From Elusimicrobiota bacterium (GTDB taxonomy: Bacteria > Elusimicrobiota > Elusimicrobia > UBA1565 > UBA9628): DNA of 64,000 nucleotides. The stretch's first letter is position 1. Every line of letters begins with the position of its first letter. Position numbers and translations under genes: made by a program. The notes under the pieces were generated by a model. That model made no database searches, was not told the origin of the DNA, and worked only from the letters and a program-made list of their open reading frames with translations. This document shows, in pieces, positions 5,590 through 53,085 of this stretch. The stretch lies in the NCBI GenBank assembly GCA_016212825.1, contig JACRDS010000013.1, forward strand, positions 31,677 to 95,676. The letters are read 5' to 3'.

Positions 5590-5626
5590 GCCGACGTAGC
5601 TCAGCGGTAGAGCAACCGCCTTGTAA
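5590..5626 (+). repeat. attL core: 37-nt 5' half of tRNA-Thr(UGU), truncated copy
   Basis: Identical base for base to 40617-40653. Identity ends exactly at the 3' end of the anticodon loop, and the following sequence cannot complete a cloverleaf. Confidence 0.85.
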
Positions 5627-5784: not shown

Positions 5785-5952
5785 TCAAGGGGACCGGAGG
5801 AGCCGTTCGAGCCCAAGGATGATCCGGACGACATCGCGCCGGGCGCCGGCGCCGCCGGCGGCAAGATGCCGCGCTGCCTGGGAGAGCACCGCCTCCCCGT
5901 CCCAGGGGACTGGATGCTGCGCGACGATGGGCCGTTCAGGCCGCGTATTCAT
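5785..5952 (-). CDS. small hypothetical protein (55 aa)
   Basis: Its start overlaps the stop of the upstream 63-aa gene (ATGA on the minus strand). This is the tail of track ORF 5785..6219. No recognisable domain. Confidence 0.4.
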   Translation of the reverse strand: MNTRPERPIVAQHPVPWDGEAVLSQAARHLAAGGAGARRDVVRIILGLERLLRSP

Positions 5953-6140
5953 CGCACGGCCTCCACATACTGCATGGCCAGGCGTATCAGCGCGACCCGG
6001 ATCGGGCCGGCCCCTTTGCGGCCGTCCACGATGAGCCCGAGATGACATGATGCGTAGAGGGGGAACCCCTCGACCGCGCTTTCGCGCCAGCCGTTCCCGT
6101 CCTGCCCGAATCCGACTGCGCCCTGCCCGTTGATCTTCAT
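5949..6140 (-). CDS. small hypothetical protein (63 aa)
   Basis: ATG at 6140 is preceded by GGAGGTGCGATT, the same SD context as the second RadC-like gene. Lies inside track ORF 5949..6158. Confidence 0.45.
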   Translation of the reverse strand: MKINGQGAVGFGQDGNGWRESAVEGFPLYASCHLGLIVDGRKGAGPIRVALIRLAMQYVEAVR

Positions 6141-6413
6141 AATCGCACCTCCGCCCACCCGGAGGGCGAAGGCGTCCGAGGGCCCGGCCCGAGGCGAGGA
6201 TTAAATGGCGGGCCCCCACCGGACGGCGGTCCTCGGCGCAGCCGAGCTGACCGCCCCGGCGCAGCCGGGCTGCCTGAAAATTTGGGGCCTGAGAAACGTC
6301 ATGAAAAACGCGCGGCGGGGGTTGGGCCGGATTTTCAGGCCGTCGGAGGGGAGGGCCGTTTATGCCGCAGCCGCGGTCCGGGCCGCTCCTGGACGCCTGA
6401 GGGGGGTGCGATT
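6141..6413. repeat. hairpin-rich non-coding module, copy 1 (inverted relative to 10811-11083)
   Basis: Aligns end to end with the reverse complement of 10811-11083 at high identity (my estimate is 80-90%). Both ends carry GGTGCGA SD-like boxes facing outward. A 2-nt indel breaks the overlapping track ORFs. Confidence 0.7.
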
Positions 6414-6554
6414 ATGACAGATTGCGAACGGGGCGCATCCGGACCGAGCAGGGTGATCTTGGCGCTGACCGCTACCGCTATGGCGCGATGGGGTCTTGAG
6501 GGGTGGGAACTTCCCAGGCGCTCGGCCGTTTGGATTGGTGGAGGACAAAGATGA
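6414..6554 (+). CDS. small hypothetical ORF (46 aa) translationally coupled to the RadC-like gene
   Basis: ATG at 6414 follows GGGGGTGCGATT. Its stop overlaps the RadC-like ATG (ATGA at 6551-6554). No homology recognised. Confidence 0.35.
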   Translation: MTDCERGASGPSRVILALTATAMARWGLEGWELPRRSAVWIGGGQR

Positions 6555-6976
6555 TCGATTCCGACATGGTTGCCACGAAAAAGGTCTCGTGCCCTGCGGG
6601 CGTCTCGATAGACGCCGCAGAGGACGTATTTCTACTGCTTGCCGCACGGGCTCAGGCGCTGGCGGACGCGCATCTGTGGCGGGTGGACCTTGACCGGATG
6701 AACCGAGTCATTGGCTGCGAGTTGATCGTGCCGCGCGGCGCGGACACGCATATCGTCCATCCGTATGCGGTCTTCCGAGGGGCCGTCGCCGCTCGCGCGG
6801 CGAAAGTGGCGCTTGTGCATAATCATCCCGCGCAGAACCTGGTCTTGTCGGATGGAGACCGCATCCTAACGGAAATGATGGCGATTTTCGGCGACCTTCT
6901 GCGGATTCCTGTCTACGACCACATCATCGTGACGGACAAGGCCTATTTTAGCTTCAATGAAGCTGGTCTACTCTAG
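6551..6976 (+). CDS. RadC-like JAB/MPN domain protein
   Basis: HNHPAQNLVLSDGD is the H-x-H-P...S-x-x-D JAB metal motif, and the C-terminal IPVYDHIIV is typical of RadC C-terminal domains. The alternative start at 6503 cannot be excluded. Confidence 0.8.
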   Translation: MIDSDMVATKKVSCPAGVSIDAAEDVFLLLAARAQALADAHLWRVDLDRMNRVIGCELIVPRGADTHIVHPYAVFRGAVAARAAKVALVHNHPAQNLVLSDGDRILTEMMAIFGDLLRIPVYDHIIVTDKAYFSFNEAGLL

Positions 6977-7009
6977 CCGAATACCCAGACCGCTTCGAAG
7001 GTCCGCTGC

Positions 7010-7216
7010 GTGAGCGATAACGGCGGGATTCGTTGGCGGATGGGCTGGGTGAAGGTGAAGGTCTCGATGGCCTGCATCGGAGAGAACGTCGGCCTTGAAG
7101 AAGTCGACAACGGCATCTGGGACGTCTACTTCGGTTCTTTCAAGCTAGGCCGGCTAAATGACAGAAAAATGGAGATCGAGAGTCCTTGCCGGAAATTCAA
7201 CCAAAGAAAAGTGTGA
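7010..7216 (+). pseudogene. 3' remnant of a DDE transposase (IS481-family-like C-terminus)
   Basis: GIRWRMGWVKV..CIGENVGLEEVDNGIWDVYFGSFKLGRLNDRKMEI resembles the conserved C-terminal tail of IS481-type integrase-core transposases. The catalytic part is absent. Confidence 0.5.
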
Positions 7217-7444
7217 CCTGTGTCTCTGGAACACCACGAGATATGCCCTTCCCATCCCGGCCTCCGGGTTCAGCAAGGCAACGCCACGATTGCCTTAAGC
7301 TTCTGGATAATGATATTACGTAGATAGGTTCATTTCTTGGGAATGTGTCAGAGCTTCAGGCACATGGAGCCCGCAGAACGTAGTCTTCATTGGCAGCTTG
7401 GAACTTGCCAACTTAAAAGGTATCAATTGAGGTAAAGCCCCACC

Positions 7445-8044
7445 ATGACCGAGGAGGCTGTTAGGGATTTAAAACACGATTACATTGAAGTTGTGTGTTG
7501 GGTGTCATTTCTTGCGTTGCTCCACCCGATGGTTTATTTGGCTATGCACGACTTCCCGAAGCCCATGCAATATTCATGCGTTGTGCTTCTGGTGTTGCCG
7601 TTCATTATTCTCTCCGCCGCCAATTCCGCGGTCGATCCATTCAAGATTTCTGCGGCAAGAGCGAGAGCATTTCTCTATTTTTTTGGGGCTGTGTTGCTGG
7701 TGTTCTCCACGTGGGTTATCAATTCCACGGGTGGACCAGCCTACAGTTTCTTCACCTGGCTCTTCGGCGTCGCCTTTATTCTGGCCTATTGCTTGGGGAA
7801 GTCGACTGTTCATCCGAGCGGCGGATACAGCGAAGCACTCGACCCCCTCCTCACTCGCCCCGTCATCTCAACGCTATCTTTGATGAGTTTGCTTTGTATT
7901 GTACTCGTTTGGTTCGCTCAGCGTTCGCCGGCGGACCCGCCGCCGGCGGCCACGCTGGAATCGATTTGGGGGGCCACTGCTATCTTGTGGTCGACCATTG
8001 TGTCCCTATTCACCTACCACAATAGTTTGAAGAGGTTCTTCTAA
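7445..8044 (+). CDS. polytopic membrane protein, unknown function
   Basis: Several hydrophobic helices. Lies in a visibly lower-GC block, with its stop 5 nt before the MFS start. Confidence 0.6.
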   Translation: MTEEAVRDLKHDYIEVVCWVSFLALLHPMVYLAMHDFPKPMQYSCVVLLVLPFIILSAANSAVDPFKISAARARAFLYFFGAVLLVFSTWVINSTGGPAYSFFTWLFGVAFILAYCLGKSTVHPSGGYSEALDPLLTRPVISTLSLMSLLCIVLVWFAQRSPADPPPAATLESIWGATAILWSTIVSLFTYHNSLKRFF

Positions 8045-8049
8045 CCGCC

Positions 8050-9279
8050 ATGACGACGAAACAGATTGAGACATCTGCGCTCAAAACAGGCCTCCAGTGG
8101 TCGCTTTATGACTTTGGGAACTCCGCCTATGCGCTAAACATTATCACGCTTTTTTTCCCGCTCTACTTCAGTTCGTTTGTGTCCAGCAACCCCGCAACAT
8201 GGAGCCGAACAGTTGCCGTCTCCATTCTGGCTTCCGCTTTGATTGCGCCAATAGCAGGGTATTTTGCGGACCGATACTCGGCCCGGAGAATCTCACTGAT
8301 TGCCTTCGCGTCCCTCGCGGTGGTTGGCACTTTGTTGCTTGGCTTCACCACCTCGTCCGCGGAAACGACAATCATATTCATCGCTACTAACATAGCTTTC
8401 TACGTAAGCACGTCCTTTTACGATGCGATCCTGGTCACTATTGCGCGTGATCGTCGCACCTTCACGTCAGGTTTGGGCTGGGCGATCGGCTACTTTGGCG
8501 GGCTGCTCTGCCTTGGCTTCTGTTATCTCATGCTCGGCTCACAAATGCCCACAAACCAGGGCGATTTCCTAAAAGTCTTTTTTTTGACAGGCCTGTTTTA
8601 CATGGTCAGCTCCCTATTTTTCTTCCGCAATCTCTCCCCCGATTCCGATGCGCATGCCGCTTCCTTGGCAGTGAGCCGAAGCGACATGGCTGGGATGGGC
8701 AGTGATTTCCGCGGCCCTCTTCTTTATGTGCTAATTGGGAGTTTCCTAGTGATGGAGGGGGTCACCACAATCGTTTATTTCACTGCAATCTACGCGAGCA
8801 GCACGTTGCATTTTTCAATCGGCCGAATCGCAGGATTACTTTCCCTCACCCAATTGATTGCGGCACCCGCTACCTATTTGATTTGCCGCTATGCGGAACG
8901 GCGGCAGAACGAATTCACTATCCTGATCATGTGCAATGTCGTTTGGCTTTTGCTTGCCTTGGCGATGTTTAAGTTCCGCTCCCCTTTGGCCTATATCGGA
9001 ATCGCCTGCCTGACAGGTCTCGTTATTGGGACTTCACCCGCATTGTTGCGTGCCTGCCTCTCGAAAATCACTCCGCCGCATCGGCGCGGATCGATTTTTG
9101 GGTTTAGCCTGCTCTGTAGTCGCGCCGCATCCGTAGTCGGGCCGCTTGTCTTCGGCTTGGTGGCTAGCAAATTCAGTGCGCCCGTTGGGATGTTGAGCGT
9201 GATTCCATTTTTTGTGCTTGGTTCAATCATCTTGTTCTCGGCTTCAGTCAAGATTTCAGCACTCCAAACTCATGCCTAA
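8050..9279 (+). CDS. MFS-type transporter
   Basis: 409 aa with ~12 predicted helices and a DRYSARR-type loop between TM2 and TM3 that resembles the MFS signature. Confidence 0.75.
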   Translation: MTTKQIETSALKTGLQWSLYDFGNSAYALNIITLFFPLYFSSFVSSNPATWSRTVAVSILASALIAPIAGYFADRYSARRISLIAFASLAVVGTLLLGFTTSSAETTIIFIATNIAFYVSTSFYDAILVTIARDRRTFTSGLGWAIGYFGGLLCLGFCYLMLGSQMPTNQGDFLKVFFLTGLFYMVSSLFFFRNLSPDSDAHAASLAVSRSDMAGMGSDFRGPLLYVLIGSFLVMEGVTTIVYFTAIYASSTLHFSIGRIAGLLSLTQLIAAPATYLICRYAERRQNEFTILIMCNVVWLLLALAMFKFRSPLAYIGIACLTGLVIGTSPALLRACLSKITPPHRRGSIFGFSLLCSRAASVVGPLVFGLVASKFSAPVGMLSVIPFFVLGSIILFSASVKISALQTHA

Positions 9280-10159
9280 TTCTTCGCTTCCAAGCGACAT
9301 CCTGCGATTTGGTTTGGCTCATGAGGTTGCGCGCGCGCGGGAAACCCGCGGGGCTGTCTTGGCTGAAATCCTCGACTACGCTTTGACCGATGGGGTCGGG
9401 AACTACGGCGGCTCGCTGTCCCGGGGTTCGCTAGCCTTGCTTCTATCTGGACAAACGACAGCGCAGGCTTGCGATTTTGGCCTTGGTATCGAACTCCTGC
9501 ACCATGCAACCTTATGCGTTGATGACTTGGTCGACCTCGGCGTGAGTCGACGAGAAAAGCTCGCAGTATGGCGGCGTTTTTCGCGGGAGTCGGCGGTCTT
9601 GCTATCCCACTACCTAACCAATCGAAGCCAAGGGCTTTTCGCGGCTAACCTCTCTTCGGAAAACAATGCGCAGGCTAGCACCTTGGTCGAGAAGATGGTC
9701 TCGGCCGAATTGCAGATTCGCACTCAATTACCCAAGAATCTCATTGATTATTCTCATCTCGTCAGTCACAAAACCGGTGCGCTCTATGCGATCGCCGGTC
9801 TGGGCATTACCCTGAATCCCGCAGTGTCCTTCGATCCGCTAATTTTGACTGCTTTCGAGGACATTGGCAGCGCCCGCCAAATTCGTGACGATCTCGCGGA
9901 TGCCGCTATAGTCACGCATCAACTGTTCCTCGACCCTGCGGCTCACCAGCGCGATATGGAGAGAGCCTTTGGTCTTGGCTGTAAACTCCTTGCCTTGAAA
10001 AACGACTTGGTCGTGCTCCAGCACGAGCTTGCAGAAAGTGCACTGAGGGCGATCTCTGCCGCCCTTGTTAATCATCCCGAGCACGAACCCATTCTTGGCT
10101 TGCTGCGGATGGTCGCCTACGGAACTGCGTCTGTAGCACGCGCGGATTTGGTGGCGTAG
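9272..10159 (+). CDS. polyprenyl synthetase / isoprenoid synthase family protein
   Basis: Two Asp-rich motifs, LHHATLCVDDLVD...RR and RQIRDDLAD. ATG at 9272 overlaps the MFS stop by 8 nt. Confidence 0.7.
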   Translation: MPNSSLPSDILRFGLAHEVARARETRGAVLAEILDYALTDGVGNYGGSLSRGSLALLLSGQTTAQACDFGLGIELLHHATLCVDDLVDLGVSRREKLAVWRRFSRESAVLLSHYLTNRSQGLFAANLSSENNAQASTLVEKMVSAELQIRTQLPKNLIDYSHLVSHKTGALYAIAGLGITLNPAVSFDPLILTAFEDIGSARQIRDDLADAAIVTHQLFLDPAAHQRDMERAFGLGCKLLALKNDLVVLQHELAESALRAISAALVNHPEHEPILGLLRMVAYGTASVARADLVA

Positions 10160-10810
10160 CGCAGTCTCGCGTTCGGAAGCGCCCCATGCGATCCCGAACT
10201 GCGCCGTGGCCAACTTGTAGATATTTGGTGGTTCGAATCGACCTTGCTAGCAGCCGAGGCCTCTTGAAGAACACGATGTCCCTTGGCCTTGGACCGCTTG
10301 GGTTTAGAGCACCTAACAAAACCACCTCTGGATGAAATTCCAGCAGATGAACGCACAGCCAATCCGGACGAAGGCCATGTAGATGTCGTCTCGCCGTTCG
10401 ACAAGGCTCTTTCCGCACGGCTTTTCGCGGGCTGCATCAAGAACTATTTGAGCAGTTGAGATCTCATTCATGAATGTCTCGGCCTAACGATAGAGTCACT
10501 CGATCTTTGTAGCACGGGTCTCGAAACGATCGTCAATGAAGATTGTATCTGAGCCGCCTACATTTGGCAACGGGAAAGAGGCTCCACTTCCCAGGATATA
10601 CTGCAAAAGCGGCCCAGGTATCACGTCGGCCTTCCCATCAGCCTATTCGCCACGCGGTCCTCGACCCGGAGCGGGTGCTGCGGACCGCGCGACTTCGATT
10701 TGAGATTCCGATATGCCGATCTGGCTGATGGCGTCCGACCCAGAGTAGTTGTGTGGCTCCGCTATGTGTCTCGCCTGGCCCTATAGCGCCTTCTCCGCAT
10801 TTTTCAGTGT

Positions 10811-11083
10811 CGCACCTCTCCTCGGGACCCAGGAGCGCCGGCCTCCCGGGCTTGCGGCATAAACGGCCCTCCCCTCCGACGGCCTGAAAATCCGGCCCAA
10901 CCCCCGCCGTGCGTTTCTTTGTTGGCGTTTATTGGGCCCCGGATTTTCAGGCAGCCCGGCTGCGCCGGGGCGGTCAGCTCGGCTGCGCCGAGGACCGCCG
11001 CCTGGTGGGGCCCCGCCATTTATTCCGCGCCCGCGCGGCGCGGCCTCGGGTCCCTCGCCCTCCGGGTGGGCGGAGGTGCGAAC
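10811..11083. repeat. hairpin-rich non-coding module, copy 2 (inverted relative to 6141-6413)
   Basis: Reverse complement aligns with 6141-6413. It ends in GGAGGTGCGAAC immediately before the ATG at 11084. Confidence 0.7.
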
Positions 11084-11491
11084 ATGAAAAAAGACTTCGA
11101 AGGAGCAAAGCAGGGCGGCCAGCCGGCGACGGCGGCCTCAAGCAAGCAGCACTACTACATCCCGTCCTACAGCGTCCGCCTGGTCCGCGAGACGTTCGTC
11201 CGGGCCGAGAGCAAGCTGGCGGACAGCCCGCAACGCGTGGTGGACATCATCCGGGCCTATTGGGGTGACGGGGAGTTGGACCGCGAGCACCTGGTCTGCT
11301 TGATGCTGAATGCGCGCTCCCAGTGCATGGCCATCAACACGATCAGCGTGGGCACGTTGACCGCCAGCTTGGTGGCGCCCCGCGAGGTTTTTAAACCTGC
11401 CGCAATCTTGGGCGCGGCTGGACTTGTCCTCTGCCATAATTTATGTGAAGCTTCACATAAGTTATGTTATGTGGAGCGCCGAGTTATGTGA
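11084..11491 (+). pseudogene. RadC-like gene, 3'-truncated
   Basis: N-terminal and linker regions are RadC-like (REVFKPAAILGAAGLVLCHN). Similarity breaks inside the HNHP motif at about 11439, where unrelated AT-rich sequence begins. Confidence 0.65.
11441..11491. repeat. 20-bp perfect palindrome plus TTATGTG heptamer repeats at the RadC truncation junction
   Basis: TTATGTGAAGCTTCACATAA (11441-11460) is self-complementary. TTATGTG recurs at 11467 and 11484. Confidence 0.5.
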
Positions 11492-11536: not shown

Positions 11537-12367
11537 TCAGGACAGCTTGACCCCATTCTTGTGTAGGGCTTGACCGGTTCCGATATTGAACTCCATCTGC
11601 TGCTCGAATTCAACCGGCGGCAGATAGCCTAGCGACGAATGCAACCGCTTCTTGTTGTAGACCTCCTCGATGAAACGCGGCAGTCTCTCGACGACATCTT
11701 CGTGGGTCTCGTAGTTCCCGAGATAGACCTCCTCGTATTTGAGCGTCTTCATGAAGCTCTCGGCCGCGGCGTTGTCATAGGGGTTCCCCGCCCGCGACAT
11801 GCTCGGCCGCAGTCCCCAAGCCTGCAGCAGGGCCACGTAATCCCCGCAGGCATACTGCACCCCTTGATCCGAGTGGTGGATGCAGCCAGGAGGCGCCTGG
11901 CGGGCCTCCAGGGCATGCCTGAGCGCTCCCAGCGCCAGCTGGGCGTCGATGCGCTTCGACACGGACCAGCCGATGACCCGTCGGGAATGCAGGTCCAGGA
12001 TCACGGCCAGGAACACGAACCCCGTCAGGATCCGGATGTAAGTAATGTCCGCCACCCAGACTTGGTTGAGCCCGGTGGTGACCAGTCCCCTCAGGAGGTT
12101 GGGATACCTCGGGAAGGGATGCTGCGAGTCGGTGGTGCGCACGAAGGCCCGCGGCCGGATCGGGAAGAGCCCGTATTGGCGCATGACGCGCCTGACGCGT
12201 TTCCCGTTGATGTGGATTCCCTGGCGCCCGAGCTCCACCTGGAGGCGCCGATAGCCGTAGGCCGGCAGCTCGAGATGGATCGCATCGATGCGGTCCTTGA
12301 GTTCGACGTCTGCCACCACACGGGCCCCGCTGGACCGGTAGTAGTATCCGCTTGTCGAGAGGCCCAC
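11537..12367 (-). CDS. IS3-family transposase OrfB (DDE integrase core)
   Basis: Typical rve domain with HSDQGVQYA, a [11 protein letters not shown] block and a C-terminal [10 protein letters not shown]. Probably expressed as an OrfAB fusion. Confidence 0.85.
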
Positions 12368-12717
12368 TATGCCGCATCCTTGCGAAACCGATGCCAGTTT
12401 AGCCCGGTTATCGTCGACGAATCGGCGCTTTTCAGCCGTCGTGCGTATGCTTCGAGTTTTTTTAAAAGGTCGATCTCCATCGTCAGTGAACCGACCTTCT
12501 CGCGAAGCTCCCGGACTTCTTTCTCCAGGCTTTTCTCTCGGACGGAGGGCTGGCCATCGAGCGCCCCATCTTTAAGCTGCTCGCGCCAACGGCTGATGGC
12601 TGTCGCCGAGATCGAATACTTCCGGGCGGCTCCCGTCAACGACACCTGCCCAGATTCGATCTCTGAAACGATATGCTTCTTCAACTCCGGCGGGAAAGAC
12701 CGTCTCTTCTTTGGCAT
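12367..12717 (-). CDS. IS3-family transposase OrfA (HTH)
   Basis: [17 protein letters not shown]...[18 protein letters not shown] is the IS3/IS911 HTH_Tnp_1 pattern. The leucine-zipper-like end contains the slippery site. Confidence 0.8.
12457..12463 (-). other. programmed -1 frameshift slippery heptamer A AAA AAA
   Basis: The minus strand reads TTA AAA AAA CTC in the orfA frame. The orfB frame is -1 relative to orfA (checked by coordinate arithmetic). Confidence 0.6.
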
Positions 12718-13066
12718 TTCCAGCTCCTTTTCAGCAGACATTTTACCATGCCTCCTTTCGGGAGCCGGTCTGAGGCCATCACAAAAACGACATCAATCTA
12801 TCCAGTCCAAGGGCGCAGTCCAGCCAGCATTTTGGTGCATATCTACAATCGTTCCATCTTGGTTGGGCCGCCGCTAACAAAATCCAGCGATGAGTGTTGG
12901 CTGCATATTCTTGGAGTCCTCCTATTTTCCGGCTACTTCATTGGCATTGGCATCGGGATTCTAGAGGTTCTTAAAGCACGACTTCTTTGTGCGCAATTTT
13001 CACGAGCCCATGGTCAGGCACCTCAATTCGGAGATAGTACAACGACTGGCATGAAGGAGCAGGGCG

Positions 13067-23590: not shown

Positions 23591-23673
23591 CCGCATCAGG
23601 TGAAGGCGCAAGCCTTCGACCTGTGTAGCTTGGGGAATCGGCCCCAGGGCATCCACGATCCCGCCGGAACGGG

Positions 23674-24186
23674 ATGAGACCACGGGAGAAGACCAAACTC
23701 GTTTCTCTCTTCCGTCCCGGCCGCAGGAAGGCCGGACCGGAAGCGGGAGACGCGCCGAGGGGTCAAATGGATACGAAAGAGCCTGTATGCGTACAAGCAG
23801 CGAATCGGTCCGCGGCCTGCGCGGCCAGCCGTCCGGGCCCGGCCGTGGAGGAGGTGATGCGCCGCCGGACCTCCAGGGAGCGATGGGTCATCCTGATGAG
23901 GCATGTCCGCGGCCAGTACCCGCACGGGATCATGTACGGGGTGAACGTCGCCGACGGCATCATCGTCTCCTGCGACAAGCTGCAGCCTTGCTTGTCCTTG
24001 GAGCCCTCCCCGGCGGCGGGCGACGGAGCCGGGAAGGCCTTCGACGCCAATTGGGAGAAGCTGGAAGCCCTGTGCGGACGCATGGGAACGGGGCGTCTGA
24101 GCGAACTGAGGTTCAACGAGGGAAGGCCCGTATCCGTGCTGCCCCCGGCGCGGGGCTGGAGGTTCGGACGCAGAACTGATAACTGA
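23674..24186 (+). CDS. hypothetical protein
   Basis: Track ORF downstream of the second sigma-54 promoter. Alternative start at 23767 (MDTKE). No domain recognised. Confidence 0.45.
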   Translation: MRPREKTKLVSLFRPGRRKAGPEAGDAPRGQMDTKEPVCVQAANRSAACAASRPGPAVEEVMRRRTSRERWVILMRHVRGQYPHGIMYGVNVADGIIVSCDKLQPCLSLEPSPAAGDGAGKAFDANWEKLEALCGRMGTGRLSELRFNEGRPVSVLPPARGWRFGRRTDN

Positions 24187-25166: not shown

Positions 25167-25709
25167 ATGGACCAGTCGGCGACGCGGACGTGCGGAAAGC
25201 CGGACATCGGGGATGGGGCGGGAAGGAAGCCGCGCTTCCTCAAGGTGCGGTTCTACCTGCCGCACCAGGACATGGTCAGCCTGGAGGAGGAGCGCCTCAG
25301 GCTCATCAAGGAGGGCCACGACGTGAGCCTCAGCAGGCTCATCTCCGAGGCCATCCGGCATCACATCCAGACCGGCCGGCGCCAAGCGGCGGGCGGCGCG
25401 GCCCTGGCCGCGCTGCTGGCCTTCGGCCTGTTGGCGCCGGGCCTGGCCGGGGCCCAGTCCTACGGCTCGCAGATCACGCAGGCAGGCCAGGCGCTCTACT
25501 CCTGGATCCGCAGCATCGGGGCCGTCATCCTGGCCATCGGCATCTCGGGGGCGGGTTTCCAGATGGCGGTGGCGCATGACCGGGAGGCCATGAAGAAGTT
25601 CTTCTACGTCATCCTGGGTGGGCTCATCGTGTTCCTGGCCCCTTCGTTCGTCTCCCTCATCCAGGGCGTGGCCGGTTCCGCGCAGTCGCTCAACATGTCG
25701 GGGCAGTGA
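25167..25709 (+). CDS. VirB2/TrbC-type pilin with N-terminal ribbon-helix-helix-like extension
   Basis: AGGAGG SD precedes the ATG at 25167. Residues ~25-68 fit an RHH pattern (KVRFYLP...VSLSRLISEAIRHHI). These are followed by the signal sequence ALAALLAFGLLAPGLAGA and two hydrophobic helices separated by AHDREAMKK, the VirB2 topology. Confidence 0.6.
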   Translation: MDQSATRTCGKPDIGDGAGRKPRFLKVRFYLPHQDMVSLEEERLRLIKEGHDVSLSRLISEAIRHHIQTGRRQAAGGAALAALLAFGLLAPGLAGAQSYGSQITQAGQALYSWIRSIGAVILAIGISGAGFQMAVAHDREAMKKFFYVILGGLIVFLAPSFVSLIQGVAGSAQSLNMSGQ

Positions 25710-25978
25710 GCGGGATGAACACCTACAAGGCGCTCGACTACCACCTCAAGACCTTCGGCTTCTGGCCTGGGGACTTGATCGGCACGTTCCTGGGCTTCTG
25801 CGTGGTCCACTGGGTCTTCAACAGCTTCCTGCTGGACCTGGTGGTAGTCGGGCCCTTGCTTTTCGCGGCGTTCAAGACGAGGAAGCGCGCTCCCGCCTAT
25901 GTCGGGTCGCTGTGGCGCTTCGCCACCACGGCCCGGCGCTTCAGCGTGGGGCTGGGCAGGGAGGGCTGCGGCCGATGA
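25706..25978 (+). CDS. VirB3/TrbD-like small membrane protein
   Basis: About 90 aa with a two-helix hydrophobic core. Its stop overlaps the VirB4 start (ATGA). The call rests on position and size. Confidence 0.55.
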   Translation: MSGMNTYKALDYHLKTFGFWPGDLIGTFLGFCVVHWVFNSFLLDLVVVGPLLFAAFKTRKRAPAYVGSLWRFATTARRFSVGLGREGCGR

Positions 25979-28425
25979 TTCTGCCTACCTTGACGCGCGA
26001 CTTGTTCCAGACCCGGCGCGAGCCCTGCGCGCACAACCTGCTCAACCTGTGGGCTCTGGAGGACGGAGCCTTGGTCGGCGTGGACCTGCAATACACCAAG
26101 CTCTTCAGGCTCACCTGTCCGGACGCCCTCTTCGCAAGCGAAGCGGAGCTGGAGCAGCACGCGGTGGCCCTCGGCCGCCTCCTTGACGGCCTGCCCGAGA
26201 ACTGCACGGCCCAGCTCATCGTCAGGGTGCGCTGGGACGCGGGCAGCAAGATCGAGGAGTACGCCTCCTACGAGCGGCCGGAGGGGGACATGCTGCGCTT
26301 CATCGTGGGCGCGAGGGTGGATTTCCTGCGGAAACTGCCGTTCAAGCGAGTGGAGCACTTCCTGGCCCTGAGCACCTATGCGGAGAAGACGGACCTCATG
26401 AAGCTGGGCCTGCGGCCCCTGGCGCTCAAGGTCCCGGACCTGGGCCGCGAGCTGGCCGGCCTGCATGAGCGCAGGATAGAGGGGCTCAGGAAAGTCTGCG
26501 CCACCGCCTCGGCCGCATTGCGCGACGCCAAGGTCGCGGCTTTGCCGCTCTCCGAGGCTGAGTCTTTGGCCTTCCTCTACGGCCGCCTCAATCCGGCCTT
26601 GGCCCAGCACACCCCGCCTCCGCCCCTGCGCAAGTCCGCGACCTTGCGCAGCCAGCTGGCGCTCAACGCCTGGGACTGCGGCTTCGACACCTTGACCGTG
26701 GACGGCCACCACCACCGGGCGGTCAACCTGGTGGTCAGGCCGGGCGGGCTCGACGGCCGGGCCATGGCCGCCTTGGCGGACCAGGTGCCGGGAGACTTCG
26801 ACCTGGTCATCGCCGTGCACAGCCTCTCGCAGGAGAAGGCGCAGCGCGAGGTGGAGTGGAACTCCACCTCGGCCGCGGTCATTGGCGGGCTGAGCATGTT
26901 CACACGCTACCACGAGGCCGACCTCAAGTGCGAGGACGCGGACGCCCTGCTGGCCCATGTGAAGTCCTCCTGCCAGAAGCTCTACCTCATGAGCTGCCAC
27001 CTGGTCCTGCGCGACGTGGACTTGAAGGCCCTGACGCGCAGCACGGACCAGGCCATCCAGGCCCTGCGCCGGCTCGACGACGCGGTGGGGGTGGTGGACG
27101 ACATGAACCACCTGCCGCTCTTCCTGGCGTCCTTGCCCGGCCATTCCCATCTCAATCCCCGCGCGCACCTGGTCCACACCGAGGCCGCGGCGCGCTTCCT
27201 GACCATGAGTTCGGGCTGGGACGGCTGTCCATGGCCGCAGTTCATGACCCCGGGAGACGACGGCAAGGCCTTGGGCATAGACCTCTTCTCCCCGGAGCTG
27301 ACCGCCAAGCACTCCCTCATCCTGGGGGTGTCCGGTGAGGGTAAGAGCGTGCTGACCAACTCGCTGCTGACCAGCTTCTTCAGCGCGGACGAGAGCCACA
27401 ACGTCATCGTCATAGACGACGGCGGCTCCTACAGGCGTCTGTGCGGCCTCTTGGGCGGGCAGTACCTTGAGCCCACCTTGGACGGCACCTACGCCTTCAA
27501 CCCCTTCCTGGCCCGCGAGTACGCCTTCGACGAAGCCGGCCGGCTCGACGCGGACTTCCTCTCCTTCATGACCTTGCTGGTCCAGCTCATGGTGCACAAG
27601 GCCGACCTGAGCAACAACCAGAAGTCCATCATCCAAAGGTGCGTGCTGGCGGCATACGAGAGCGGCAAGAGCCGGACCCCCATTCTGGCCGACCTGCGCG
27701 AAGCCTTCAGGGCCTTCCGGGGCGACGAGGAGGATGAGGCCCTGGCCCGGAGCTTCTACAAGGATCTGGACCTCTGGACCGAGGGCACCTACGGCCGGCT
27801 GCTCAACCGGCCGGGGACCTTCGACGCGGCCTCGCGCTTCATCGTCTTCGACCTCAACAAGATGACGCAGGAGGACCTCAAGCCCGTGCTCCTGCTCATT
27901 ATCAAGAGCGTCATCCATCCCAAGCTGGCGGACAAGAGCCTGCGCAAGGTGATCGCCTTGGACGAGGTGTGGAAGTTCCTGCGCGAGAAGGCCGGGGCCG
28001 ACCTGGCGGCCGAGTGGTACAAGACCGGCCGGCGCTTCAACGCCGCGGTCATGGTGGTCACCCAGTCGGCAGAGGACCTGCTGGCCAGCAAGGCGGCGGA
28101 GGCCATCACTCATAACTCCACGGTGAAGTGGATCCTCAACCTGGGCGGGGGCTACGAGAAGCTGGCGGACCTCAAGCTCTCGGCCGAAGAGATCGAGGCG
28201 GTCAAAAGCCTGGGCAAGAACGTGGACCGCTCGCGCTTCCGCAAGGTGTTCCTGCGCTTCGGCGAGCGCAAGGCCGTGATCCGCAACCAGCTCTCACCCA
28301 CCGAGTACTGGCTCTACACCACGGACCCCAACGACGTGAACCGGGAGGCCGCCCTGCGCGAGGCCCACCCGGAGTGGGGCGCGGTGGAGCTCCTGCGCGC
28401 TCTGGCCGGAGGGGCCCGTGCTTAG
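25975..28425 (+). CDS. virB4: type IV secretion ATPase VirB4/TrbE family
   Basis: 816 aa. Walker A GVSGEGKS, Walker B VIALDEVWKF, VVTQS motif, conserved N-terminal VirB4 architecture. Confidence 0.9.
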   Translation: MILPTLTRDLFQTRREPCAHNLLNLWALEDGALVGVDLQYTKLFRLTCPDALFASEAELEQHAVALGRLLDGLPENCTAQLIVRVRWDAGSKIEEYASYERPEGDMLRFIVGARVDFLRKLPFKRVEHFLALSTYAEKTDLMKLGLRPLALKVPDLGRELAGLHERRIEGLRKVCATASAALRDAKVAALPLSEAESLAFLYGRLNPALAQHTPPPPLRKSATLRSQLALNAWDCGFDTLTVDGHHHRAVNLVVRPGGLDGRAMAALADQVPGDFDLVIAVHSLSQEKAQREVEWNSTSAAVIGGLSMFTRYHEADLKCEDADALLAHVKSSCQKLYLMSCHLVLRDVDLKALTRSTDQAIQALRRLDDAVGVVDDMNHLPLFLASLPGHSHLNPRAHLVHTEAAARFLTMSSGWDGCPWPQFMTPGDDGKALGIDLFSPELTAKHSLILGVSGEGKSVLTNSLLTSFFSADESHNVIVIDDGGSYRRLCGLLGGQYLEPTLDGTYAFNPFLAREYAFDEAGRLDADFLSFMTLLVQLMVHKADLSNNQKSIIQRCVLAAYESGKSRTPILADLREAFRAFRGDEEDEALARSFYKDLDLWTEGTYGRLLNRPGTFDAASRFIVFDLNKMTQEDLKPVLLLIIKSVIHPKLADKSLRKVIALDEVWKFLREKAGADLAAEWYKTGRRFNAAVMVVTQSAEDLLASKAAEAITHNSTVKWILNLGGGYEKLADLKLSAEEIEAVKSLGKNVDRSRFRKVFLRFGERKAVIRNQLSPTEYWLYTTDPNDVNREAALREAHPEWGAVELLRALAGGARA

Positions 28426-36206: not shown

Positions 36207-36889
36207 TGATGAGATACGCGGCGCTGTTCCTGCTTCTTGCACGGCCTGGAGCGGCCGAGGACCTGGTGGACCCCACGGCGCTCTTCAGCCAGGCGGCGCA
36301 GGCGGCCAAGCCTGCCGCGGCCGAGCGGCCGCCGGCCTGCCCGGGCGCGGACGACTTCTTCCTGCCCACGGGCTTCACCTTCCCGGCCCTGCTTCCCGAC
36401 GCCATCTTCAGCTACAACACCGCGGCCCCGGTCAACGCCGTGCTGGAAGACGACGTGAAGTCCCGCGGCCGCGTGATCCTGCCCAGGCACACGCGCCTCA
36501 TCGGCGGCGTCAACGCCCTGCACACGCTGGACCGGGTCAACATCGCCTGGCGCCTGGCGGTACTGCCCGAGGGGTGCGAGTTCGAGTTCTCGGGCATCGC
36601 CCTCTCGGCGGACGACGGCTCGGGAGGAGTGAAAGGCAAGGTGGAGAAGCATGAGGATTCGGTCGCGGCGCAGGTGGCCCTTAAGTCCATCCTCAACGGC
36701 GCACAGCAGGCCGCGGCCATAGCAGTCCCGGTCGAAGGCGCGCTGGCCTCCGGGTTCTCCGGCGAGGCCAACCTGATGCTCGACCAGAACATAGCCAAGG
36801 TCAAGAGCCTGGAGTCCATCTACATCCGCGAAAGGACGCAGATCCGCGTCTTGGTCATGAGGAGGTTCGCCCGAGATGGCGGAAAATGA
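36203..36889 (+). CDS. VirB10/TrbI-like protein (short form)
   Basis: Signal-like N-terminus. The core VLEDDVKSRGRVILPRHTRLIGG...RVNIAWRLAVLPEG...DDGSGGVKGKVEKH follows the TrbI/VirB10 C-terminal domain pattern. It lacks the usual long Pro-rich N-terminal region. Confidence 0.6.
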   Translation: MMMRYAALFLLLARPGAAEDLVDPTALFSQAAQAAKPAAAERPPACPGADDFFLPTGFTFPALLPDAIFSYNTAAPVNAVLEDDVKSRGRVILPRHTRLIGGVNALHTLDRVNIAWRLAVLPEGCEFEFSGIALSADDGSGGVKGKVEKHEDSVAAQVALKSILNGAQQAAAIAVPVEGALASGFSGEANLMLDQNIAKVKSLESIYIRERTQIRVLVMRRFARDGGK

Positions 36890-38765
36890 ATCCTCGCCCT
36901 GCGGCTGGGAGTTCGTGCTCATGGTCGCTCTGATAGGCATGGCCTTGCAGAAGAACGCGCCGGCCATGGAGCGCCGGCTCGTGGCCTGGGAGGTGGCGCC
37001 TGTCACCGCGGCCGGGGTCGCGGCCCGCGCGGCCTATCGCCGGCTGGGGCAAGGGGCGACCCTCGGCAAGAAGGCATGCCTCAACGTCGCGGTCAACCTC
37101 TTTGCGAAGTCGGCCAATCCGCTTCGTCCTGGCGTGGGCTGGTTCGGGTTGTTGTCGCTCGGAGTCTTTCTCTGCCCCTTGGCGGCGCGCCGCATGGGCT
37201 CGTTGCGTTATTGGAACACCGAGTGGCTCGCAGCCGCGGTGCTGGTCACGGGGGCAGGCGCGTGTTTCGGGTTGGCCATGCCCGCTGCCTGGCCCTGGCC
37301 GGTGCTCTGGGTGGGCGGCGTGTGGGCCTTCGCCAACACAGGGGCCGCCCTCTTCTGCCTATGCCTGGCAATCTGGTCCTTCCATAAGGGTTCGAAGCGT
37401 CTCCACCATGGTCCGGCATTCAAACTGCCCATGATGTCGAAGCCATGCTCCGGCTTCACCGTGGGCCGCGTGGACCCGAAGATCATGCCCGGCCACTCCC
37501 GGTGGCTGGCCTCAGGTGGAGGCGACATCCAACTCCCTTTCAACCGCCTTTCCTGCGGCCTGACCGTGCTGGGAGAGAAGGGCGCCGGGAAGTCTCGGCT
37601 GCTTTTCGCCATACACGATGCCATCAGGAGGCAGCATCCGAACGTCCCCATCCTCATCCACGACCCCAAGAGCGAATGGTACCGGACCTACTACGACCCC
37701 AAGGCGGACCTGTTCTTCGCCCCGCACTTCAAGGGCACCGCGGCCTGGAGCCTGTGGCGGGATTTCAGGGAGGTGCCGGAGCTGCGCCACGAACTGCTTT
37801 CGACCTGCGTCTACGCCCACCAGGACCGGGATGATACCTTCTGGATGGACCAGGCCGTGGACCTCCTGCACCAGGTCTCGGGTTTCAAGACTCTCTCCAA
37901 AGCTGCGGATTATCTGGGAGACATCCCGCACCAGCACCCGGACGACGAGTTCCTCTTGTCGGTCTTCGGCACCGCAAAGCTCGGCTTCCTGGATCTGGCC
38001 AAGACCGAGCTGATGTCCGCCATCTCGGGGGCCCGGCCGCTGTCCATTGACGATTTCCTCCGGCAGAAGGGCCGCATCATCCTGCTCAACAACCCCTCCT
38101 GCGCATCCGAACAGAAGGGGGCTTTCAGCCTGTTTTTGTCCGCATTCCTGCTGAGGGCGCTTTCGCTGCCGGACGTGCCGGAGGGCACCCTGCGCGCTGT
38201 CGCCATCATCGACGAGGCGCTGACCTTCAACCTGCCCCCGGACGTGGAGAGGCGCATCTCGACGCTGTGCCGGTCCAAGGGCGTCTGCGTCGTGGCCGGC
38301 GCCCAGCGCCTGCCGGACCGCCAGCGCAACGAACGCGGCGAATGGCGCACCGCGGAGCACACCTTCGCCATGAAATGCGTGAACCAGGACACGCAACGCG
38401 AGCTGTCCAGGAAGGCCGGCAGCCTGCTGTTCCGACGCATGGCCCAGAGCACGACCACTTCGGCCTCGGAGCGCGCGGCCGGGCAGTCTCATACCAGGAG
38501 CGAGCAGGACCTCAGCCAGGAGGCCATCCCGCCGGAGCACTTCGGAAGGCTGTCGCCCCGCGAGTTCGTCTTGTTCCACGACCAGGGCATCGTGACCGGC
38601 AGGACCGTGGAGGTGGGGCGCGAGCAGCGCGCCGTCGCCCTGCCGCCGTACGAGCTGCGCGAGGACGTGCGCCGGATATCTATGGGGCTGATCGCCGACA
38701 TGCCTGCGCAGAAGGAGGACGAAAAAGAAGACGGAAAGGAGGATGGAGAAGATGAGCGTGATTGA
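36876..38765 (+). CDS. virD4: type IV coupling protein (VirD4/TraG/TraD family)
   Basis: N-terminal TM helices, Walker A GEKGAGKS, Walker B AIIDEALTF, acidic KEDEKEDGKEDGEDE tail. Confidence 0.85.
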   Translation: MAENESSPCGWEFVLMVALIGMALQKNAPAMERRLVAWEVAPVTAAGVAARAAYRRLGQGATLGKKACLNVAVNLFAKSANPLRPGVGWFGLLSLGVFLCPLAARRMGSLRYWNTEWLAAAVLVTGAGACFGLAMPAAWPWPVLWVGGVWAFANTGAALFCLCLAIWSFHKGSKRLHHGPAFKLPMMSKPCSGFTVGRVDPKIMPGHSRWLASGGGDIQLPFNRLSCGLTVLGEKGAGKSRLLFAIHDAIRRQHPNVPILIHDPKSEWYRTYYDPKADLFFAPHFKGTAAWSLWRDFREVPELRHELLSTCVYAHQDRDDTFWMDQAVDLLHQVSGFKTLSKAADYLGDIPHQHPDDEFLLSVFGTAKLGFLDLAKTELMSAISGARPLSIDDFLRQKGRIILLNNPSCASEQKGAFSLFLSAFLLRALSLPDVPEGTLRAVAIIDEALTFNLPPDVERRISTLCRSKGVCVVAGAQRLPDRQRNERGEWRTAEHTFAMKCVNQDTQRELSRKAGSLLFRRMAQSTTTSASERAAGQSHTRSEQDLSQEAIPPEHFGRLSPREFVLFHDQGIVTGRTVEVGREQRAVALPPYELREDVRRISMGLIADMPAQKEDEKEDGKEDGEDERD

Positions 38766-39107: not shown

Positions 39108-39296
39108 ATGACGGAGAGATTGCTGACGATAGAGGAGGTCTGCGTGAAGCTGGGGGGGGTCAAGCCTTGGACGATACGCGGCTGGGTGAGCCAGAGGAGG
39201 ATACCCTTCACCAAGGTGGGCCGGCTCACCAGGTACCCCGAGGCTCAGATCAACGACTGGATCAGGTCCAACACCCGCGTCCCCCTCGGCGCCTGA
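39108..39296 (+). CDS. xis: excisionase-family / MerR-type HTH DNA-binding protein
   Basis: 62 aa. LLTIEEVCVKLGGVKPWTIRGWVSQRRIPFTKVGRLTRYP matches the excisionase-family HTH_17 pattern. Located directly upstream of the integrase. Confidence 0.7.
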   Translation: MTERLLTIEEVCVKLGGVKPWTIRGWVSQRRIPFTKVGRLTRYPEAQINDWIRSNTRVPLGA

Positions 39297-39350: not shown

Positions 39351-40493
39351 ATGGGACTGGTGAAGAAGGGCGAGAACTGGTTTATAGACTACCGCGCCAA
39401 CGGGCGGCGCATCCGGGAGAAGGTCGGCCCGAGCAGGAAGCTGGCCGAATCGGCGCTGGCCAAGCGGAGGCTGGAACTCGCGGAGAACAGGTTCCTGGAC
39501 GTCCGCAAGGCCAGCCGGGAGACCTTCCAGAGCTTCGCCGAGAAGTACCTGGAGTGGGTCCAGGGGCGCATCCGCTCGATCGCCAACGAGCGCATCTACG
39601 TGCGGCGGCTCAACGCGACCTTCGGCGGCACCTGCCTCTCGGATATAGACGTGGCCCGCGTCGAGAAGTTCATGGCGCAGAGGCTCAAGGAGCCGCGCCA
39701 GCATCCATATCGCGGGAAATCCGCATGGAAGCTCGACGCGGTCGAGCGCGAGGCGAAGATTAAGGCGTGGTACGCGGGGAACGGAAAGACGATCTCAAGG
39801 GCGCACGTGAATCGCGAGGTCTCCTGCCTCCGGCGCATCCTTAATAAGGCGGCGGACTGGAAACTGCTGCCGGCGCGTCCGCTCGGGGGGCTCAGGCTGT
39901 TCGATGAGCGAGAGTCGATACGCAAGCGCTATCTGAAGCCCGAGGAGATCCGGACCCTGCTTGCCGCCTGCGGCCCGGGCCTCAGGCAGGTCGTGACCTT
40001 CGCCCTCTACACCGGCCGCAGGTACGGCGAGATATCCGGAATGCGGTGGCAGGACGTGGACGTCGAGAACGGATACGTGTACTTCCCGAGGACCAAGAAG
40101 AAGGAGCCGGACCAGGTGGCTCTGCCGCCGCGGGCGCGTGAGGTCCTGGCGGAGTTGCGCCGCGATGCGAACGGCGATTTCGTCTTTCATAAGAAAGACG
40201 GCGGGCAGCTGCGGGTCGTGCGGTCGGGCTTCAAGAGGGCCCTGCGCAGGGCGGGAATCGCGAATTTCAGGTTCCATGATTTGCGGCATACGGCCATATC
40301 TTATATGATGATGAACGGCATCGATTTGAAGACCATCGCCGAGCTCGTGGGCCATGCGACGGCTCAAATGGTGGACAAGCGCTACGGCCATCTTTCGCCG
40401 GACCACAAGCGCGCCGCCGCGGAGGTTTACGGTTCGGCGATGGACAGGTTGTGCGGGCATGGGCAAGTCCCCTCTCAAGCCGGGGCGGCCTGA
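39351..40493 (+). CDS. int: tyrosine recombinase / integrase
   Basis: N-terminal SAM-like domain. Catalytic region with R...HDLRHTAISYMMMNG...GHAT...Y (RFHDLRH, RYGHL). Confidence 0.9.
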   Translation: MGLVKKGENWFIDYRANGRRIREKVGPSRKLAESALAKRRLELAENRFLDVRKASRETFQSFAEKYLEWVQGRIRSIANERIYVRRLNATFGGTCLSDIDVARVEKFMAQRLKEPRQHPYRGKSAWKLDAVEREAKIKAWYAGNGKTISRAHVNREVSCLRRILNKAADWKLLPARPLGGLRLFDERESIRKRYLKPEEIRTLLAACGPGLRQVVTFALYTGRRYGEISGMRWQDVDVENGYVYFPRTKKKEPDQVALPPRAREVLAELRRDANGDFVFHKKDGGQLRVVRSGFKRALRRAGIANFRFHDLRHTAISYMMMNGIDLKTIAELVGHATAQMVDKRYGHLSPDHKRAAAEVYGSAMDRLCGHGQVPSQAGAA

Positions 40494-40616: not shown

Positions 40617-40653
40617 GCCGACGTAGCTCAGCGGTAGAGCAACCGCCTTGTAA
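40617..40653 (+). repeat. attR core (37 bp, 5' half of the intact tRNA-Thr)
   Basis: Identical to 5590-5626. Confidence 0.85.
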
Positions 40654-40688
40654 GCGGTAGGTCGCCGGTTCGATCCCGGCCGTCGGCT
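40617..40688 (+). tRNA. tRNA-Thr (anticodon UGU)
   Basis: Hand-folded cloverleaf: acceptor GCCGACG/CGUCGGC, D arm GCUC-AGCGGUA-GAGC, anticodon stem ACCGC/GCGGU with loop CUUGUAA, T arm GCCGG-UUCGAUC-CCGGC. CCA is not encoded. Confidence 0.9.
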
Positions 40689-52921: not shown

Positions 52922-52990
52922 CCTATTAGCTCTTTTATTTGGGCTGGACGACAAATGGCACACGGTCTGCTTCAGGCAGGCCCCCAGAGG

Positions 52991-53085
52991 AATGCCGCTG
53001 GGCCGGGGAAACCCGGGGTCGCAAAGCTACGGGGCTAAAGGGAAGCCAGCCGGGCTTCTCCAAGTTCGCCGGGTTGCCGAAGGTG
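52991..53085 (+). promoter_or_regulatory. candidate c-di-GMP-I (GEMM-I) riboswitch aptamer
   Basis: A CCGGGG-GAAA-CCCGGGG hairpin is followed by GUCGCAAAGCUACGGGGCUAAAG, an inner GAAGCC/GGCUUC hairpin, and a 3' GCCGGGUUGCCGAAGG. Compare Vc2: GACGCAAAGCCUCCGGCCUAAAC ... GCGGGGUUACCGAUGG. Confidence 0.55.

Follow-up and report, generated by a model that had tools for sequence, protein, structure and literature searches.

We analyzed a 64,000-nt stretch of an Elusimicrobiota bacterium genome (assembly GCA_016212825.1, contig JACRDS010000013.1, positions 31,677 to 95,676; hereafter the window, whose own numbering is used throughout) and found that its integrative and conjugative element (ICE) carries two members of a previously undescribed family of covarying hairpins of ~340 nt. 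The ~270-bp repeated module that a sequence-only reading of the window had picked out is the core of this imperfect hairpin, which forms on one DNA strand of the ICE and has the start of a gene built into its base. We propose, with a probability of roughly 40%, that the hairpin is an element of the Frpo/ssi kind that would work on single-stranded DNA (ssDNA) and provide a start signal for early ICE genes.

The module is one long hairpin present twice in inverted orientation

The two copies, at 6141-6413 on the + strand (copy 1) and 10808-11083 on the - strand (copy 2), are non-coding and form an inverted repeat that is 86-88% identical. A repeat search returned three collinear inverted arms (6193-6313/10911-11031 at 87%, 6306-6376/10846-10916 at 94% and 6136-6172/11052-11088 at 92%), and pairwise alignment of the copies gave a mean identity of 88% over their full length with similarity stopping just beyond the module, which bears out the inverted ~270-bp repeat of the sequence-only reading. 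A search of the organism's own genome (3.56 Mb, 186 contigs) recovered exactly these two copies, at 86% identity.

Each copy is a single long imperfect hairpin from end to end, with the whole 273 nt folding as one rod whose closing helix pairs the first bases, AATCGCACCTCC, with the last, GGGGGGTGCGATT. We refer to the strand that appears as + in copy 1 as the F strand; it is the better-folding strand, and in copy 2 it is the - strand, which serves as template for the + genes of the ICE. When both strands of both copies were folded, all four were better than shuffled sequences, with z = -5.4 and -6.7 for the F strand and z = -3.6 and -5.6 for the complement. The internal hairpins named earlier are present, and the long stem does have TT in copy 1 and CC in copy 2 opposite GG. 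Outward-facing GGTGCGA boxes followed by ATG were likewise found at 6140 (-), 6414 (+) and 11084 (+), with the fourth end decayed. Because the termini of the module pair with each other, the two outward boxes, which had been described as a Shine-Dalgarno (SD)-like box at each end, are the two strands of the closing helix.

The hairpin reaches beyond the module. The core helix is prolonged by ~40-45 nt on each side, where the first ~15 codons of a gene pair with a non-coding, decayed inverted copy opposite them, and most relatives have in addition a ~200-nt upstream domain, so that the unit is larger than the extent first assigned to it. For copy 1, flank alignment and the fold of 6086-6468 place the left extension at 6101-6140, which holds the leader codons of a 63-aa open reading frame (ORF) and pairs with 6414-6450. 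The right extension (6414-6554, +) can be read as a 46-codon ORF overlapping the start of a RadC-like gene (ATGA); its protein is not conserved, and tblastn with it matched only the window itself. The right extension of copy 2 (10775-10807) is decayed, as judged from flank alignment and fold. A protein-coding module was rejected, since the ~70-aa ORFs running through the copies (6205-6417, + and 10804-11019, -) have their first 26 residues in common and are shifted in frame thereafter, and homologues differ by 1-2-nt indels. Together with the covariation described below, this agrees with the earlier view that conservation lies in nucleotides and structure, not in protein.

The hairpin belongs to a covarying family

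When 61 related genomes were searched by BLAST, 32 gave matches to the module at E ≤ 0.01, the weaker of them short and partial. Often a single contig of a relative has 2-5 copies, all oriented alike; such direct repeats are 1-11 kb apart and lie between genes of common orientation. Direct pairs or triplets occur in genomes G010, G021, G026, G040, G056, G354 and G419. The inverted pair is therefore real in the window but peculiar to it, the copies being direct repeats everywhere else. Exact-pattern scans added 27 loci from a genome collection and 55 from a metagenome collection, nearly all of them in Elusimicrobiota metagenome-assembled genomes (MAGs), and de-duplication left 87 unique full-length copies from Elusimicrobiota genomes and metagenomes. 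These fall into size classes of 240-262 nt, ~200 nt (without the side hairpins) and ~273 nt (with an apex insertion); both window copies are of the last subtype, with an insertion of ~25 nt. An even sample of 401 genomes of the phylum contained the module in 21, restricted to the order of the window and one other family and patchy within genera. Copies were also seen on three contigs binned to other phyla (L048, an Armatimonadota MAG; L059, an Oleiagrimonas MAG; L060, a Bryobacteraceae MAG), which reflect either cross-phylum ICE transfer or mis-binning. Neither the hairpin nor the upstream domain was matched in Rfam 15, at the gathering threshold or at relaxed E values (up to 10 on the window, up to 5 on the locus of a relative), and the hairpin family had no match in plasmid (PLSDB, 72,556 plasmids) and phage collections.

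RNAalifold on 29 copies gave 74 consensus pairs, 37 of which show compensatory double changes in a count that ignores phylogeny; the covariation predicted for homologues is thus present. For example, an AAAAT/ATTTT stem is replaced by GCGCT/AGCGC or AAGGG/CCCTT in homologues. Paired cells made up 95.9% of the total, compared with 84.7% in shuffles (reached in 0/500) and 32-56% when the partners were slid by 1-3 columns. The covarying hairpins include CGGUCCUCGG..CCGAG..GACCG, CCCGGC-GCA-GCCGGG and the long GCCUGAAAAU stem (helices 9-12). The family also has a three-way junction, invariant loop sequences and an invariant CCCTCC just 5′ of the SD, and the loop sequences GGCGGGGGTTGGGCC and CCGTTTATGCCGCAG are highly conserved.

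With its terminal inverted repeats and near-palindromic symmetry, the module could be taken for a selfish or neutral palindromic repeat of ICE intergenic DNA, similar to a miniature inverted-repeat transposable element (MITE). This explanation is already strongly disfavored and we regard it as highly improbable: the 3.56-Mb genome has two copies and relatives have 1-5, in every case within one ICE family, the junction with gene starts is fixed in 86/86 copies, and both compensatory changes and asymmetric conserved features are kept at ~70% identity. The same copy number and fixed position relative to gene starts speak against the end of an insertion sequence (IS).

The template strand is the more stable strand

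With RNA parameters, every one of 29 copies folded more stably as F than as the complement (mean difference 15 kcal/mol); with DNA parameters, 28 of the 29 did. Among 81 sequences of <95% identity, G·U/T cells numbered 146 and A·C cells 79 after two near-invariant wobble pairs were excluded, and GU exceeded AC at 30 pairs compared with 17 for the reverse. The downstream genes have this more stable, G·T-rich strand as their template. As a positive control we folded the experimentally validated Frpo1 and Frpo2 of plasmid F (NC_002483), which are repeats ~90% identical and 5.4 kb apart (PMC9849209). Their T strand folds at -122 and -130 kcal/mol and their sense strand at -113 and -117 kcal/mol, and the advantage of the T strand is 9-13 kcal/mol with DNA parameters and 25-34 kcal/mol with RNA parameters. 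As a negative control, two riboswitches of the window were more stable on the transcribed strand. Based on the stability and wobble bias of the F strand and on both controls, the hairpin behaves like Frpo and unlike an mRNA leader. The sequence-only reading had offered a structured leader RNA or an ssDNA promoter/ssi element as candidate roles; the identity of the best-folding strand favors the second, but the -35/-10 boxes that known Frpo elements reconstitute were not found (see below).

A gene start is fixed in the base of the hairpin

At the 5′ end of the F sequence, on the opposite strand, 86/86 copies have GGAGGTG and, after a spacer of 6-8 nt, an ATG whose position is fixed; in 84 of these the ATG opens an ORF of at least 45 aa. 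The other end of the hairpin has an ATG in only 42/82 copies. Accordingly, the two ends are not equivalent: the SD-like boxes proposed for both are real, but a consistent gene start is found at one. The SD GGAGGTG of the next gene, its ATG and its first ~15 codons all lie in the hairpin base, where the SD is paired with CACCTCC in helix 1, and the F strand is antisense to the adjacent gene in 86/86 copies. Because the gene start sits in the hairpin base in every one of these copies, at least 10 unrelated gene families have a single N-terminal leader, roughly MK(K)TCES.KRFGKEGNG, and similarity between the families breaks at about codon 17.

Across the 87 copies the commonest downstream gene encodes an ECF sigma factor (29 copies; Sigma70_r2 and Sigma70_r4_2), followed by RadC-like genes (17) and at least eight other families, which include six of 45-85-aa proteins and a ParB-like family of 509-534 aa. 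RadC is therefore not the specific partner of the module, as had been supposed. Inspection of translations indicated that the leader start is the sole start of the ECF sigma genes. The RadC, ParB-like and 128-aa families have an SD and Met of their own ~30 codons downstream of the leader start, and the leader is in frame in some of their copies and out of frame in others. The downstream genes (ParB-like, RadC, DUF6573, regulators) are typical establishment or leading-region cargo, and ParB is among the top leading-region families (PMC11541004, supplement).

For the window, the claim that each copy feeds a RadC-like gene holds insofar as both genes encode RadC-like JAB proteins by PF04002, but they lie at non-equivalent ends. 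Copy 1 has as its canonical downstream gene the 63-aa ORF (orf63; 5952-6140, -), which starts at the fixed position with its SD, ATG and ~15 codons in the hairpin base; a Pfam scan of this ORF gave no match, and its family is kept in at least six metagenome contigs. RadC1 (6551-6976, +; PF04002, E 2.5e-25) lies at the non-canonical end, behind the 46-codon ORF. The layout in which orf63 and RadC1 point away from the hairpin on either side is conserved in L070, L086, L101, L110, L111 and L077, and a local inversion behind the odd orientation of copy 1 was rejected because at least six metagenome contigs keep this layout. RadC2 (11084-11491, +; PF04002, E 3.1e-14) occupies the canonical end of copy 2 and starts inside the hairpin base. 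Its PF04002 match spans model positions 2-73 of 121 only, and to judge from the ORF translations it appears to be cut short by an adjoining IS3-like element.

An upstream terminator-like domain and the search for a promoter

Directly upstream (in the sense of the gene) of the hairpin in most relatives is a second conserved, covarying domain of ~200 nt, with several helices and a terminal GC hairpin followed by a T/C-rich run. It was found at L034:8806-9020, L037:5234-5445 and about 60 other loci, also after genes with no hairpin following, and is absent from both window copies. Strict terminator criteria were met by its GC hairpin in 22/71 copies on the sense strand compared with 1/71 on the other strand, and its wobble pairs lean to the sense strand (25 vs 8, with two pairs dominating). 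An anti-SD role for the C-rich stretch of this domain was rejected, since on inspection its variants would not pair with GGAGGTG. The unit at L037 6971-7205 looks like a natural hairpin-deletion variant: of the hairpin it retains only the first ~44 nt, but the upstream domain, SD and leader ORF are all in place.

No sigma-70-type promoter was found on either strand or arm of the hairpin, its flanks or the spacer in a scan of the window and 29 copies, where the only recurrent promoter-like match was a weak sense-strand CGGTCA-N16-GAAAAT in 10-14 of the 29. A canonical TATAAT is present in the upstream region of the host's own tRNA-Thr. For ECF-type (AAC..CGT) and sigma-54 (GG-N10-GC) promoters, no conserved and correctly spaced match was seen in the consensus, which was inspected by eye only.

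These results bear on whether the hairpin acts as RNA. As a 5′ untranslated region (UTR) on the sense strand, the hairpin would use its closing helix and extensions to lock the SD, AUG and early codons and so repress translation, with relief by processing (e.g. RNase III), a helicase, a ligand or a protein binding the conserved loops. Such a leader would fit the enclosure of the SD, ATG and ~15 codons by the closing helix in 86/86 copies, and the conserved internal-loop and apex sequences, the three-way junction and the invariant CCCTCC have the look of an RNA sensor. The ICE family also uses a 2′-dG-II riboswitch, and two small local hairpins have wobble pairs that favor the sense strand. We nonetheless consider a leader unlikely. 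The sense strand is less stable in all 29 copies and wobble pairs overall favor its opposite, whereas the riboswitch controls show the reverse behavior. A terminator-like hairpin stands upstream with no promoter found between it and the giant hairpin, and a rod of -110 to -135 kcal/mol would be an essentially irreversible lock.

The F sequence could instead be transcribed as a cis-encoded antisense RNA of ~250-340 nt, whose 5′ part, complementary to the shared SD, ATG and leader, would repress in cis and in trans in the manner of FinP/traJ. The better fold of F, its exact antisense position over the translation start and the retention of one leader by at least 10 unrelated families, as for a common antisense target, are consistent with this idea, and the copy-1 subfamily has RadC1 downstream in the F direction. 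Against it, no F-direction promoter was found within the leader codons, sequence past the leader differs among gene families, F-direction terminators are lacking (1/71), and the target-complementary 5′ part would be buried in the closing helix of the RNA itself instead of being exposed in a loop. Such an antisense RNA seems to us distinctly unlikely.

The hairpins lie in an ICE

The ICE location suggested earlier was confirmed by a VirB4/TraC-type ATPase of a type IV secretion system (T4SS) at 25618-28425 (P-loop_TraG, 1.8e-41; TraC_F_IV), a type IV coupling protein at 36876-38765 (TrwB_AAD_bind, TraG-D_C), an excisionase-like HTH_17 protein (xis) at 39108-39296 and a tyrosine integrase (int) at 39351-40493 (both by Pfam), all on the + strand and between tRNA-Thr repeats. 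The left attachment-site repeat is a 37-nt copy of the 5′ half of tRNA-Thr(TGT) (5590-5626, +), which is 100% identical to 40617-40653 and a weak cmscan tRNA match; the intact tRNA-Thr(TGT) (40617-40688, +) forms the right ICE end.

All ICE genes, VirB4 and int among them, are co-directional with the hairpin-linked genes in the window (copy 2) and in G010, G026, G014 and G016. The leading and tra genes of plasmid F are arranged in this way as well, and the gene orientation is compatible with a leading-region position. The same architecture is intact in G010. There, hairpins at 184.9 and 196.0 kb mark the integrase-distal end; the genes that follow, all co-directional, are cargo, a Replic_Relax-like gene (sub-threshold), the coupling-protein gene, VirB4 and, at 231.7 kb, the integrase gene. 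G014 and G016 carry reduced elements in which xis and int follow the hairpin unit within a few kb. No homologue of the Replic_Relax-like protein, ECF sigma factor or DUF6573 protein of G010 was found in the window. Given these missing homologues and the apparently interrupted RadC2, the window ICE looks degraded and may be defective.

The hairpin as a candidate ssDNA start signal

Our preferred reading is that the hairpin works as an Frpo/ssi-like element. The F strand, as template of the following genes, would fold once conjugative entry or rolling-circle replication has made the ICE single-stranded. The fold would recruit RNA polymerase and/or act as a priming site or replication roadblock, transcription would begin within the hairpin and leave it through the 5′ arm, entering the gene next to it (for an ECF sigma factor, RadC, a ParB-like or a small protein), and the outcome would be an early, transient burst of expression. 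Read-through RNA containing both arms would refold and conceal its own ribosome-binding site and thus may be self-silencing, the upstream terminator-like hairpin would limit read-through and so insulate each unit, and the double-stranded form would carry no promoter. We infer that F is the transferred strand; recognition of its fold by RNA polymerase or a primase, and the site where transcription starts, are likewise predictions of the model. The probability is held at roughly 40% because the -35/-10 boxes were searched for and not found, because the transferred strand is assigned by inference, and because the copy-1 subfamily has F on the other strand.

Frpo and ssi elements (ssp1 and ssp2; plasmid F, ColIb-P9) resemble the hairpin in several respects (Masai and Arai 1997; PMC9849209; PMC11541004; bioRxiv 10.64898/2026.01.09.698686). 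In both cases an imperfect hairpin of ~250-350 nt stands directly before establishment genes, the folding strand is the template of those genes, and there are several ~90%-identical copies a few kb apart (here, in the relatives). In both, leading and transfer genes are co-directional with a ParB-family gene in the cargo, and an AT-rich stem lies near the apex. They differ in that the Frpo stem reconstitutes -35, -10 and UP boxes and ours does not. Unlike Frpo, the Elusimicrobiota hairpin is GC-rich, has a three-way junction and invariant loops, and is carried by an ICE of this phylum and not by an enterobacterial plasmid. Its base includes the SD, ATG and ~15 codons, whereas in F the fold begins ~45 nt upstream of the ssb ATG. 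By analogy, the element would be functionally closest to Frpo/ssp while being no member of that group by sequence or promoter boxes.

Several results weigh against an ssDNA role. No -35/-10 pair is reconstituted in either arm, and the AT stem of the CGGTCA-N16-GAAAAT match is GCGC in some members. Counting by pairs gives a moderate strand bias (30 vs 17), and the sequences are related; the bias is missing from the helix extensions (33 vs 28), which we set aside as uninformative, and it is reversed in the two small local side hairpins (GU 10, AC 22 in a per-pair tally), a reversal that would fit folding in mRNA. The conserved loops GGCGGGGGTTGGGCC and CCGTTTATGCCGCAG are more typical of protein- or ligand-binding RNA. 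By sequence, the hairpin matches neither known Frpo (nhmmer against the leading region of F) nor any of the 72,556 plasmids. In copy 1 and its subfamily, F is opposite to the rest of the ICE genes. Finally, no oriT or relaxase was recognized, Pfam scans of the G010 ICE giving only the sub-threshold Replic_Relax match.

Other mobile-element structures offer partial parallels. Single-strand origins (sso; ssoA, ssoT and ssoU of rolling-circle plasmids and sso1 of ICEBs1) are orientation-specific folded ssDNAs of 150-300 nt with covarying stems and short invariant unpaired motifs; they prime DNA synthesis and are not fused to the translation start of a gene. They are used when the element is single-stranded, as the hairpin would be. 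In the hok mRNA, distant complementary segments (fbi and tac) keep the ribosome-binding region closed on a mobile-element transcript; these locks are short and act on the sense RNA, whereas here it is the antisense strand that folds better. The radC RNA motif (RF01754) and STAXI are, like the hairpin, conserved structures beside radC, antirestriction, ssb or integrase genes of mobile DNA, but they are much smaller and come from Proteobacteria and other groups (PMC2864571). An ssDNA reading of STAXI was raised by its authors (Weinberg et al. 2010, PMC2864571). The RF01754 and STAXI covariance models gave no match, at the gathering threshold or with E limits relaxed to 10 (window) and 5 (the locus of a relative).

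The variable cargo also raised the possibility of a strand-specific recombination or replication site, either an attC-like folded site bounding exchangeable cassettes or a single-strand origin or roadblock with no promoter role. Integron attC sites, too, are imperfect palindromes; they function in the folded single-stranded state, owe their strand selectivity to unpaired bases and separate cassettes of like orientation. The one-strand preference and conserved unpaired bases of the hairpin recall the logic of attC and sso. The layout is cassette-like (a hairpin, one to a few genes and a structured 3′ domain), gene families and their order vary among ICEs, homology ends at a similar point (about codon 17), and one unit has lost its hairpin (L037 6971-7205). 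However, attC sites are 57-141 nt, variable in sequence, follow their gene and need IntI, whereas the hairpin is 250-340 nt, far more conserved (70-90% identity), precedes its gene and contains the start. No dedicated recombinase is consistently adjacent, in an integrase scan that covered only the tRNA-targeting tyrosine integrase of the ICE, and gene shuffling would also be expected from ordinary homologous recombination between repeats of ~500 bp. A replication signal alone would have no need of the embedded SD and ATG. On balance we think such a site very unlikely.

A broader version of the ssDNA reading, which we put forward as speculative and rather improbable, is that the ICE early region is built of standard cassettes. 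Each would open at its 5′ side with a giant hairpin active only as ssDNA, in the role of zygotic promoter, primer site or roadblock, continue with one gene or a few, and close at its 3′ side with a structured RNA domain that includes a terminator. Within such a cassette, the RNA copy of the hairpin would silence read-through by hiding the shared ribosome-binding site and leader. On this view the hairpins would represent a promoter class defined by its fold and not by -35/-10 boxes, and the first ssDNA promoter family supported by covariation, outside Proteobacteria and Firmicutes; they may be read by the ECF sigma factor of the ICE itself, whose gene is the commonest one behind them.

ssDNA promoters let conjugative plasmids express anti-defense and establishment genes before the incoming DNA is double-stranded. 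To our knowledge, these promoters are so far essentially one homologous family on enterobacterial plasmids, recognized by similarity and by their -35/-10 boxes. The hairpins are an alignable and unrelated family (87 copies, strong covariation and strand asymmetry, in ICEs of an uncultured phylum). With them it can be asked directly whether early expression from the transferred strand, defined by fold, is a general feature of conjugation. Should the ssDNA reading prove wrong, the hairpin with its upstream domain would still be a large undescribed structured nucleic acid of ~550 nt, and the use of one ribosome-binding site and N-terminal leader by at least 10 unrelated ICE gene families is unusual and wants explaining.

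Other features of the window and related elements

The IS3-like transposase next to RadC2 consists of two overlapping ORFs on the - strand (11537-12367 and 12367-12741), was identified by eye from translations and lies outside the module. ORFs in this high-GC DNA were picked by third-position GC. The segment 7010-10160, between the two hairpin copies, has a lower GC content (51-55%) and was probably inserted later; recognized in it by eye were genes for a membrane protein, an MFS-like transporter and a polyprenyl-synthase-like product, along with a C-terminal transposase fragment. The intact tRNA-Thr stands at the integrase end, and the 37-nt direct repeat bounding the ICE is the 5′ half of the tRNA. 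The ICE therefore appears to target the 5′ part of the tRNA gene, which it presumably restores, although the 3′ part is the usual target.

In the reduced element of G016, a 70-aa ORF behind the hairpin (L014:1400-1500; G016:C27 ~59.8-60.8 kb) has an ECF-sigma-like start and an excisionase-like end, and looks like a deletion that fused sigma to xis; the integrase next to it is 78% identical to that of the window. In G010, three consecutive tyrosine-recombinase-like genes, recognized by eye, lie right after the sigma-DUF6573 pair (G010:C32:186368-189619; L033).

Riboswitch aptamers were found inside and outside the ICE. A 2′-dG-II aptamer occurs inside the ICE family, at 23618-23688 (+) in the window (74.9 bits) and at L035:1760-1830 (-; 82.5 bits). 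The window aptamer is just upstream of the train of genes leading to the T4SS genes, and a nucleoside-sensing switch on a conjugation operon is worth attention. A c-di-GMP-I aptamer lies outside the ICE, at 52986-53081 (+; 46.8 bits).

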